This document shows positions 1-431 of a stretch of 431 bases of DNA, piece after piece. Source of the stretch: Escherichia coli (GTDB lineage: Bacteria > Pseudomonadota > Gammaproteobacteria > Enterobacterales > Enterobacteriaceae); the NCBI RefSeq assembly GCF_003334385.1, contig NZ_QOWN01000183.1; one strand, 5' to 3'. Below the pieces are notes generated by a model. The model saw only the letters and a program-made list of their open reading frames with translations, was not told the DNA's origin and ran no database searches. Positions within the stretch are counted from its first letter, which is position 1. Each line of letters begins with the position of its first letter. Both the position numbers and the translations under genes were made by a program.

Positions 1-77
1 GCAACCAGCATTAGTGAAAATGAAATACCGACAATCACACACAGGACCTTTGCCGGCGTTATGAGTTTGTCTGACAT
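1..77 (-). CDS. 5' end of a protein-coding gene (start ATG at 77-75, continues beyond window position 1); hydrophobic N-terminus suggests a membrane or secreted protein; identity unknown
   Basis: Minus-strand ATG at 77-75 is the first start after an in-frame TAA (89-87). It is preceded by AAGGGG (88-83) with a 5-nt spacer. The frame stays open to position 1 and reads MSDKLITPAKVLCVIVGISFSLMLV..., with a hydrophobic stretch from about residue 10. The supplied track omits it, apparently because it is partial. Confidence 0.6.
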   Translation of the reverse strand, partial: MSDKLITPAKVLCVIVGISFSLMLV

Positions 78-79
78 AG

Positions 80-175
80 CTACCCCTTAATTGCCACAAT
101 TAACTGGGATACTACCCATAAAAAAGGGATGCTCCAGACCAGCAAAAATTTCCAGTTTGGTAATTGACTAATCAT
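80..175 (-). CDS. Candidate small ORF, 31 aa (MISQLPNWKFLLVWSIPFLWVVSQLIVAIKG), predicted single-pass small membrane protein; hypothetical
   Basis: This is the internal ATG (175-173) of the 70-aa track ORF, in the same frame, with TAG stop at 82-80. AGGGAG (190-185) lies 9 nt upstream. The peptide has a roughly 20-residue hydrophobic core (FLLVWSIPFLWVVSQLIVAI) flanked by K residues. Caveat: the minus strand is T-rich here, which favours hydrophobic codons by chance. Confidence 0.35.
   Translation of the reverse strand: MISQLPNWKFLLVWSIPFLWVVSQLIVAIKG
83..88 (-). promoter_or_regulatory. Shine-Dalgarno / ribosome-binding site (AAGGGG) for the gene starting at 77
   Basis: Minus-strand AAGGGG lies 5 nt upstream of the ATG (AAGGGGtagctATG), a near-ideal spacing for a purine-rich Shine-Dalgarno. 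Confidence 0.6.
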
Positions 176-184
176 GAGTCGCAA

Positions 185-190
185 CTCCCT
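185..190 (-). promoter_or_regulatory. Putative Shine-Dalgarno (AGGGAG) for the candidate small ORF
   Basis: Minus-strand reads AGGGAGttgcgactcATG. The GGAG core is present and the 9-nt spacer is at the long end of the functional range. Confidence 0.35.
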
Positions 191-240
191 AATCAGTTTG
201 CTAAAATCAATCAAGGCAGCCTCCCATAGCTTACTGCCAT

Positions 241-280
241 AAAAACAAAACCCCGCTTGCTGCCAACAAACGGGGTTTTT
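241..280. terminator. Rho-independent (intrinsic) terminator, potentially bidirectional
   Basis: Stem 251-259 (CCCCGCTTG) pairs with 267-275 (CAAACGGGG): 9 bp with one C/A mismatch and five G-C pairs, loop 260-266. It is followed on the plus strand by TTTTT (276-280) and preceded by AAAAACAAAA (241-250), which is UUUUGUUUUU on the minus strand. The minus-strand TAA stop at 287-285 lies 9 nt before the hairpin. Confidence 0.75.
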
Positions 281-284
281 ACTT

Positions 285-431
285 TTATTCACTTACATTT
301 TGCCAGTTCGCAGGATTTCGTGTTATCCGTCCGCCTTGGCCAACGTCATTTATTAGCAAAATATTCTGCTTATCTGTCGATTCCCCAGCACGCCAGCGCG
401 CTCTCCTGGTCTCGCCGGGATACCTGACCGT
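285..431 (-). CDS. 3' end of an upstream protein-coding gene (enters from beyond 431, TAA stop at 287-285); product unknown; frame assignment uncertain
   Basis: Minus-strand frame is open from 431 to the TAA at 287-285 (48 codons: ...TVRYPGETRRARWRAGESTDKQNILLINDVGQGGRITRNPANWQNVSE*), and the stop is followed immediately by the terminator. Caveat: this frame holds several codons rare in enterobacteria (AGG x2, AGA, CGA, CGG, CTA, ATA x2). Another minus frame, stopping at 372-370, and a stop-free plus frame are also open here. Confidence 0.4.
   Translation of the reverse strand, partial: TVRYPGETRRARWRAGESTDKQNILLINDVGQGGRITRNPANWQNVSE

Follow-up and report, generated by a model that had tools for sequence, protein, structure and literature searches.

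A probable cis-antisense RNA opposite a small membrane-protein gene in the lysis region of a lambdoid Escherichia coli prophage

Lambdoid phages encode cis-antisense RNAs such as P22 sar and lambda OOP, and sar is complementary to the ribosome-binding site of ant. Another group of small RNAs (sRNAs), comprising AgvB, AsxR and HnrS (EcOnc10-12), comes from the lambdoid late region on the strand opposite the late genes; these RNAs are 51-66 nt long and have their own promoter and an intrinsic terminator. Here we analyse a stretch of 431 nucleotides from Escherichia coli (contig NZ_QOWN01000183.1 of RefSeq assembly GCF_003334385.1; ‘the window’ below means this whole stretch), which contains the 5' end of a cassette for a small membrane protein, placed between the lysozyme (R) and Rz genes of a prophage. 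Opposite the small membrane-protein gene lies a probable cis-antisense sRNA. We put at about one in two the probability that the window's own variant of the cassette makes a plus-strand RNA of ~70 nt opposite the start region of the small membrane-protein open reading frame (ORF). The features needed to follow the argument are listed here.

214-286, plus strand: predicted antisense RNA, ~70 nt, with a 5' hairpin carrying CCUCCC in its loop, an A-rich linker, a terminator hairpin and a U tail
199-207, plus strand: candidate antisense promoter, an extended -10 element (TGcTAAAAT) with a weak -35 element (TCGCAA, 179-184) across a 17-nt spacer
239-293, no strand assigned: hairpin that is terminator-like in both directions, with a G+C stem at 247-279 and, on each strand, an A-rich tract before and a T-rich tract after the stem
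215-238, minus strand: mRNA leader, predicted from sequence and folding to form a 5-bp hairpin (GGCAG 238-234 with CTGCC 219-215) with GGGAGG (225-220) in its loop
80-214, minus strand: conserved small membrane-protein gene of 44 aa (MIDFSKLIRELRLMISQLPNWKFLLVWSIPFLWVVSQLIVAIKG), from start TTG 214-212 to stop TAG 82-80

By analogy, the locus most resembles in function a type I toxin-antitoxin pair, or the action of P22 sar on ant; on their membership tests it falls within none of the described families. As in the type I systems hok/sok, ldr/rdl, zorO/orzO and timP/timR, a hydrophobic one-helix membrane protein of <60 aa is combined with a predicted short opposite-strand RNA that overlaps the ribosome-binding site and leader of the protein, and the antisense promoter is constitutive in a homologous cassette of E. 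coli O157:H7 EDL933. The differences from type I systems are that neither sequence nor profile matches are found in Rfam, PADLOC or NCBIfam, that no promoter of its own is found for the mRNA of the window protein, which is apparently expressed by read-through of the late operon, and that the cassette sits within a lysis cassette, directly before Rz. With P22 sar and lambda OOP the candidate would share a short length (~70 nt), its own promoter and an orientation against the phage operon, and with sar also the complementarity to a ribosome-binding site. It differs from both in its locus (the R-Rz gap), in its target (a small membrane protein), in having no sequence similarity to them, and in a terminator that is common to the sense strand.

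An antisense start has been published for the EDL933 cassette. There the lysozyme gene is followed by a hairpin identical to window positions 247-280, by a CCTTG/CAAGG leader and, after the hairpin, by the class-b ORF EDL933_RS06270. From the elements TGGACA (1272061-66) and TATACT (1272085-90), a plus-strand start is predicted at ~1272097. In a published Cappable-seq study (PMC10469882, Table S6), gene 6270 has a primary antisense start at 1272098 (+) that recurs in all of the eight conditions: LB, M9, acid and salt, each in exponential and in stationary phase. The predicted and published starts agree within 1 nt, and the chance of a start falling within 2 nt of a prediction is ~1%, given 19,975 starts on ~11 Mb of strand (PMC10469882). 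Relative to the complement of the GTG that opens the ORF, the published start is one base upstream; transferred to the window, this geometry predicts a start at 214-215. No further start is found in 1272060-1272239 among the starts listed. The general idea of the original prediction, a short plus-strand RNA that ends at the hairpin and is antisense to the start region of the small ORF, is reasonably supported by this start; its promoter, its start and its target site are all replaced by others below.

In the window itself, TGcTAAAAT has the top promoter score on either strand (11.0), and the start predicted from it is at 214-215 (+). The pattern TGNTAWWAT occurs once in the window, compared with an expectation of 0.12. 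The site is the antisense of codons 3-6 (D-F-S-K) of the 44-aa ORF. A first set of relatives had been fished with a pattern containing the candidate -10 and was left out when conservation was judged; new sets were anchored on the leader pattern or on peptide patterns, with the -10 not in the bait, and a peptide scan of viral contigs contributed near-identical type-A copies only, with no diversity. In all members found without motif bait, the -10 is kept as TGcTAAAAT, TGcTAATAT or TGcTAAGAT, and the TG is always present. The synonymous sites needed by the -10 (the third bases of codons 3, 4 and 5, and an AGC rather than a TCN serine) do not vary in any lineage, not even in the most divergent one (AAT CTT AGC AAG); codons 7, 8, 9 and 13 vary synonymously. 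In each ORF class, moreover, the best antisense promoter within 200 nt has a -10 ending 4-7 nt inside the ORF: TGGACA-18-TATACT in class b, TTCACA-16-TAATAT in class c, TCCACA-16-TAAAAT in class d, and TGcTAAAAT or TGcTAATAT in the window's class. As a background, 1912 phage ORF starts that have a ribosome-binding site show such a hexamer at that place in just 3.5-4% of cases.

The RNA predicted from 214 to 286 folds at -21.9 kcal/mol (z = -2.9), and the predicted RNAs of all variants fold alike, with a 5' hairpin, an A-rich linker and a terminator. The CCUCCC in the loop is an anti-ribosome-binding-site sequence, and the predicted RNA shows full complementarity to both the leader of the 44-aa ORF and its ribosome-binding site. 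The G+C-rich hairpin at 247-279, which had been proposed as a terminator downstream of a plus-strand ORF, proves to be real, conserved and covarying: among 25 distinct sequences, 94.8% of the cells in its 14-bp stem are paired, both partners differ in six of the pairs, and its covariation score is higher than in any shuffle. A terminator scan called this hairpin on the minus strand only, where the T-run TTTTGTTTTTAT follows the stem. On the plus strand TTTTTACTTTTATT comes after the stem, and there are thus T-runs on both strands. The equivalent place of the mRNA leader is taken by a different 5-bp hairpin in other variants (TGACT/AGTCA or CCTTG/CAAGG) and by CCTG/CAGG in Providencia. A single consensus structure for this leader hairpin was tried and given up, as none could be written on the MAFFT alignment, in which the variants place the hairpin at shifted columns.

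BLAST breakpoints divide the region into three layers: positions 284-431 go with the lysozyme gene, the hairpin unit begins at ~280, and a further breakpoint lies at 134, inside the ORF. The mobile unit runs from an A-tract through the hairpin and a U-tract to the 5-bp leader hairpin and, last, the ribosome-binding site. In many phages it stands before small ORFs, which fall into four classes, and the genes upstream of it are unrelated (lysozyme, antirepressor, a baseplate-like gene and others). In every context the 5' edge of the unit includes ATAAA(A/G)CGAAA(A/G), the tract that would give a plus-strand terminator its T-run. A broader reading, which we consider doubtful, is that these are members of a widespread cassette family of enterobacterial temperate phages, whose conserved, mobile part would be a gene for an antisense RNA, made up of a promoter within the first codons of a small ORF, a leader complementary to the ribosome-binding site and a terminator used in both directions, with small membrane-protein ORFs exchanged behind it. 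With its G+C hairpin, its complementary A/T runs and its position at the edge of a small accessory cassette in a late operon, the arrangement is also like bidirectional intrinsic terminators and phage morons. A classical moron, however, has a promoter upstream and a terminator downstream of its gene, whereas the hairpin here is upstream of the gene, and the order of promoter and then terminator is found only on the antisense strand.

A number of observations weigh against an antisense RNA in the window variant, and many of them fit an alternative: that no functional antisense RNA is made, that the hairpin serves the minus strand only, be it as a terminator or insulator in the lysogen or as a stem for stabilisation or processing located between R and the accessory small-ORF cassette, and that the -10-like hexamer of the plus strand is a by-product of A/T-rich conserved N-terminal codons. 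The minus-only call of the terminator scan agrees with this. The promoter score of 11.0 is attained by 15% of shuffled windows and is unremarkable for the window alone. The -10 overlaps conserved amino acids, and selection on the protein could partly explain its conservation (through the D-F/I-S-K overlap and because early codons are often A/T-rich); there are few independent lineages, and the first codons of classes a, c and d are homologous, so that the ORF classes amount to ~2 independent observations rather than four; and the clade nearest the window, with 3 haplotypes in 92 copies, is uninformative on conservation. In the hairpin, the innermost pair between the A-tract and the U-tract covaries (A:U in 17, G:C in 6; columns 20 and 48 of alignment A2, or window ~280-283 and ~243-246), which favours a long stem as such; selection on the 14-bp stem seems to go beyond termination alone. 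Variants E, G and c have poor U tracts on both strands. In a viral contig (L046), the 45-aa ORF and its ribosome-binding site are joined to unrelated upstream DNA with no hairpin or leader, so that the ORF can occur with no putative antisense terminator before it. The EDL933 start is that of a cassette whose leader and ORF differ from those of the window variant, and pervasive antisense starts are common in that data set. Finally, the cassette copy in prophage Sp4 of E. coli Sakai (~1184767-1184867, +) is absent from the 63 Hfq-bound RNAs found by cross-linking and analysis of cDNA (CRAC; Tree et al. 2014), although this copy is a different variant from the window and the CRAC peaks had been filtered; its absence argues against strong Hfq binding, not against the existence of the RNA. 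What the alternative does not account for is an EDL933 antisense start that misses the prediction by no more than 1 nt and is seen in all eight conditions, a -10 at the same position in unrelated ORF classes against the low background, and a cassette edge that always contains the plus-strand T-run. We hold it to be quite possible, if on the unlikely side.

The sense-strand ORF of 44 aa has homologues in Escherichia, Salmonella (phage SPN3UB), Citrobacter, Yersinia and Providencia, which are 45 aa long and begin with a GTG 5-6 nt past a strong ribosome-binding site, AAGGAG or GGGAG; in the window the ribosome-binding site is GGGAGG at 225-220. They follow the pattern M-[IF]-D-[FI]-SKLIRE-[LI]-R-[LV]-M...W[KR]F.L[IV]W...IRWW, and their stop codon touches the start of Rz. 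The ORF has one hydrophobic stretch and is conserved across five genera. It codes for protein, as is shown by an excess of synonymous over nonsynonymous changes in pairwise comparisons (11:7, 11:4, 10:5 and 9:3) and by a match to phrog_6632 (E = 1.3e-12), a PHROGs family of unknown function. For six small ORFs, NCBIfam and PADLOC gave no hits and PHROGs gave only families of unknown function; in a protein database search there was no Pfam domain, and the only names were ‘phage protein’ or ‘hypothetical protein’. RefSeq (PGAP) calls instead a 70-aa ORF with a GTG start, WP_001043230.1 (292 to 80, minus strand), which reads through the terminator hairpin. This start is almost certainly wrong, the comparison with relatives placing the true one at TTG 214.

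A second possible start lies within the same gene:

173-189, minus strand: internal Met14 (ATG 175-173), invariant, with GGGAG at 189-185

In the most divergent member the GGGAG upstream of Met14 reads AAGGAG. Codon 12 is a stop in three sequence variants (first seen in L015, L059 and L108), with the Met14 frame open, and in another (L020) the first start is lost (GTG to GTA) and the Met14 frame is still open. Forms of 32 aa are annotated by some sources. On the strength of these open frames, Met14 may be a second start, in a dual-start gene of the kind seen in holin/antiholin pairs; one might then speculate that two protein forms could be under different control. As for transcription of the gene, promoter scoring found no convincing promoter for a small-ORF mRNA on the minus strand between R and the ORF, and in the EDL933 cassette no sense-strand start is among the starts listed. 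The best minus-strand candidate, TTGGCA-16-TTTTAT inside the hairpin, was rejected because it has no -11A. The small ORF seemingly has no promoter of its own, and would therefore be expressed only by read-through of the late operon.

With the start of the gene at TTG 214-212, the remaining parts of the original prediction can be placed. It had taken the ATG at 175, which is Met14, as the start of the small ORF, and had proposed an antisense RNA, starting near 195-200, complementary to the Shine-Dalgarno sequence (GGGAG at 189-185) and 5' UTR of its mRNA. The best promoter instead predicts a start at 214-215, and an RNA from there would miss both this GGGAG and the ATG and would cover the ribosome-binding site and leader of the long ORF. 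The proposed -35, TTGACT at 164-169, is present and matches the consensus at five of six positions, but it is a chance hexamer inside coding sequence, the antisense of codons Ser16-Gln17 of the minus-strand gene, and no part of the feature: the window has six hexamers within one mismatch of TTGACA against 4.89 expected, and 76 of 200 shuffles reach six. The remark that no matching -10 with a -11A accompanies it is borne out, the hexamers 15-19 nt past TTGACT scoring from -8.5 to -0.2 bits and the best of them, CCTAAT, having no -11A. Loss of the motif from related genomes had been named in advance as refuting the proposal, and the relatives have TTGTTC, TTTTTC or TTGCTT in its place (it is lost in types B, C and A2 and in Providencia), so the proposal fails on its own terms. 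A plus-strand RNA driven by TTGACT is hardly credible. The palindrome TCATGA (172-177) does contain overlapping start codons (plus 174-176, minus 175-173), and the 22-codon plus-strand ORF at 174-242 can be read. The plus ATG and the ORF that it opens depend on the codon pair CTC-ATG in the window variant; relatives have CTA-, CTT- or GTG-ATG, with the plus ATG lost and no plus ORF. Like the -35, this ORF is due to chance: it is an artefact lying antisense to the leader and to codons 1-14, and has no PHROG hit.

Another promoter would give a longer product, an antisense RNA of ~180 nt that starts near 107 from CTGACA-N18-TGcCACAAT (71-100, +) and covers the whole small ORF. This site is the only one to pass a two-hexamer scan and has the second-best plus-strand score (9.6), but 0.6 such sites are expected by chance, it spans a mosaic-specific junction of the first and second small ORFs, and the equivalent junction in locus L006 is without the -10. 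We regard such an RNA as very improbable.

If the ~70-nt RNA is made as predicted, the following mechanism can be proposed. The promoter TGcTAAAAT (199-207), lying in codons 3-6 of the ORF, would fire at ~214-215, and the RNA would stop at ~281-286 at the sense-strand hairpin, used in the opposite direction. It would be made constitutively in the lysogen. Together with the sense terminator it would silence the small membrane protein, by blocking ribosome binding on transcripts that read through, and the sense/antisense duplex might be a double-stranded substrate for RNase III. In the window variant the mRNA's ribosome-binding site would also be in a loop, so that a first contact between loops is possible. 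After induction, late transcription modified by the Q antiterminator would pass the hairpin, and the mRNA would then far exceed the antisense RNA.

A plus-strand RNA could also exist and have its main job in trans, on host or phage mRNAs or sRNAs. AgvB and AsxR (anti-sRNAs) and HnrS are a precedent in favour of a short opposite-strand RNA in the lambdoid late region, and the candidate is like them in orientation, size class and build, with a conserved 3' hairpin and a 5' part that varies among variants; its A-rich linker has A-R-N triplets. The known RNAs, however, lie downstream of pR' or of Rz, bind Hfq and act in trans, whereas the candidate overlaps the start region of a coding gene and has neither an Rfam match nor a Hfq-CRAC peak. 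A search of all 4227 Rfam families at E up to 10 returned only sub-threshold, terminator-driven hits (ohsC, PyrR, rnk and isrJ), the best being ohsC with 21.6 bits against a gathering score of 50, on the terminator only; neither AgvB (RF02702) nor AsxR (RF02703) was found. None of the Sakai Hfq-CRAC peaks is in an R-Rz gap, EcOnc10, EcOnc11 and EcOnc12 (HnrS) being downstream of Rz and EcOnc33 upstream of the holin gene; the missing Sp4 copy counts against action in trans as well. The perfect complementarity to the adjacent ribosome-binding site makes a cis target obvious. We judge a main role in trans improbable. Of the Sakai prophages, Sp10 and Sp6 have no hairpin and Sp3 has no gap; Salmonella type C is not among the model prophages of the phage collection. 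The Pas sRNAs were considered and set aside, as their position is between the esterase and holin genes, not in the R-Rz gap.

HnrS itself has a place in the same prophage. For context we use a longer prophage locus, L001, of which positions 6001-6431 are the window. BLAST of the Sakai HnrS region gives no match in the window and a single one in the locus, at L001 4817-4989, ~1.0-1.2 kb past the left edge of the window and downstream of Rz, with 96.5% identity to the HnrS region of Sakai Sp10. The prophage of the window thus probably also carries the known 66-nt sRNA HnrS (EcOnc11), on the strand opposite the late genes.

The rest of the window is made up as follows.

370-431, minus strand: 3' end of the prophage lysozyme gene R/rrrQ, with stop codon at 372-370 (RefSeq lysozyme at L001 6370-6903)
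284-369, minus strand: spacer 3' of R, which travels with the R gene (BLAST breakpoints 275/284 in Shiga toxin (Stx) phages)
1-77, minus strand: 5' part of the next small hydrophobic ORF (43 aa, MSDKLITPAKVLCVIVG...), which extends past the window (phrog_4906, E = 4.5e-21)

The window falls in the gap from lysozyme (R) to Rz, part of the lysis region of a lambdoid prophage of E. coli, and its genes are on the minus strand. This is the direction of phage late transcription and hence the biologically relevant strand. In the RefSeq annotation the lysozyme gene is followed by a run of small ‘hypothetical’ ORFs up to the spanin (Rz) gene. All 431 bases match a lambdoid prophage at 100% in several E. 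coli chromosomes; E. coli G8 (GCF_014295215.1; NZ_CP060057.1, 2962667-2963097) is a lysogen with exactly this prophage. The sequence, whole or partial, is present in 2027 of 5426 complete E. coli genomes, where it occupies a median of 2 and at most 14 places per genome; partial matches are mostly the lysozyme 3' end, and at least 80% of the window is present in 703 of these genomes. The E. coli K-12 prophages are without the insertion, and in Qin rrrQ adjoins rzpQ with no cassette, which makes K-12 transcription-start maps uninformative here.

The ~90-nt spacer after the lysozyme stop (window 284-369, minus strand) is conserved together with the lysozyme gene in E. coli and contains the conserved block GGCGGATAACAC(G/A)AAATC. 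In Salmonella phage SPN3UB the spacer is ~75% identical, though the sequence immediately upstream of it there has no match. In Sakai prophage Sp10 it is retained up to ‘gtgaataaag’, after which an antirepressor (ant) gene module takes over. A homologue of the 43-aa ORF, ECs_1966, directly precedes Rz in Sp10. On the other side of the window, tandem small hydrophobic ORFs stand before Rz on the minus strand of L001 5729-6077 (window -272 to 77): the 43-aa ORF (MSDKLIT..., phrog_4906), a copy, truncated at its 5' end, of a 60-aa family (phrog_3246/1115) and a 28-aa ORF with an IRWW end. The C-terminal motifs LIVAIKG, LVIALKS and IRWW are shared across families, which suggests repeated recombination within one superfamily of Rz-adjacent peptides.

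Two further observations concern the EDL933 region and its relatives. Class-b cassettes (L155; L307, Sakai 1184728-1184947; and L308, EDL933 1272059-1272278) have an upstream ORF of 8 codons, MGREVLSL; its stop codon and the GTG at which the main small ORF begins overlap (cTGTGAgg). In sequence this overlap looks like translational coupling, and the EDL933 antisense RNA would cover the MGREVLSL ORF. EDL933 also has a second antisense start in 8 of 8 conditions, at 1272853 (+) (L308 ~10854), upstream of a plus-strand gene of 90 aa (WP_000138558.1) between the holin and lysozyme genes. L001 has a plus-strand gene in a similar placement at 7029-7304. A plus-strand gene between holin and lysozyme looks like an oppositely oriented accessory gene (moron) in the lysis cassette.

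One practical outcome is a correction of current annotation, in which RefSeq runs a 70-aa GTG-start ORF through the hairpin. If the RNA is real, it would be an undescribed antisense regulator inside the lysis cassette of thousands of E. coli and Salmonella prophages, and its partner would be the uncharacterised small membrane proteins directly before the Rz (spanin) gene. The finding then bears on how lysis-associated membrane peptides are silenced in lysogens, and on the roles that such accessory peptides may have, in lysis timing, in the exclusion of other phages or as toxin-like activities. If the mobile unit is indeed an antisense gene with exchangeable ORFs behind it, late operons would contain a safety catch like that of type I toxin-antitoxin systems, or a control of lysis timing, by which lysis-associated membrane peptides would be kept silent in lysogens.

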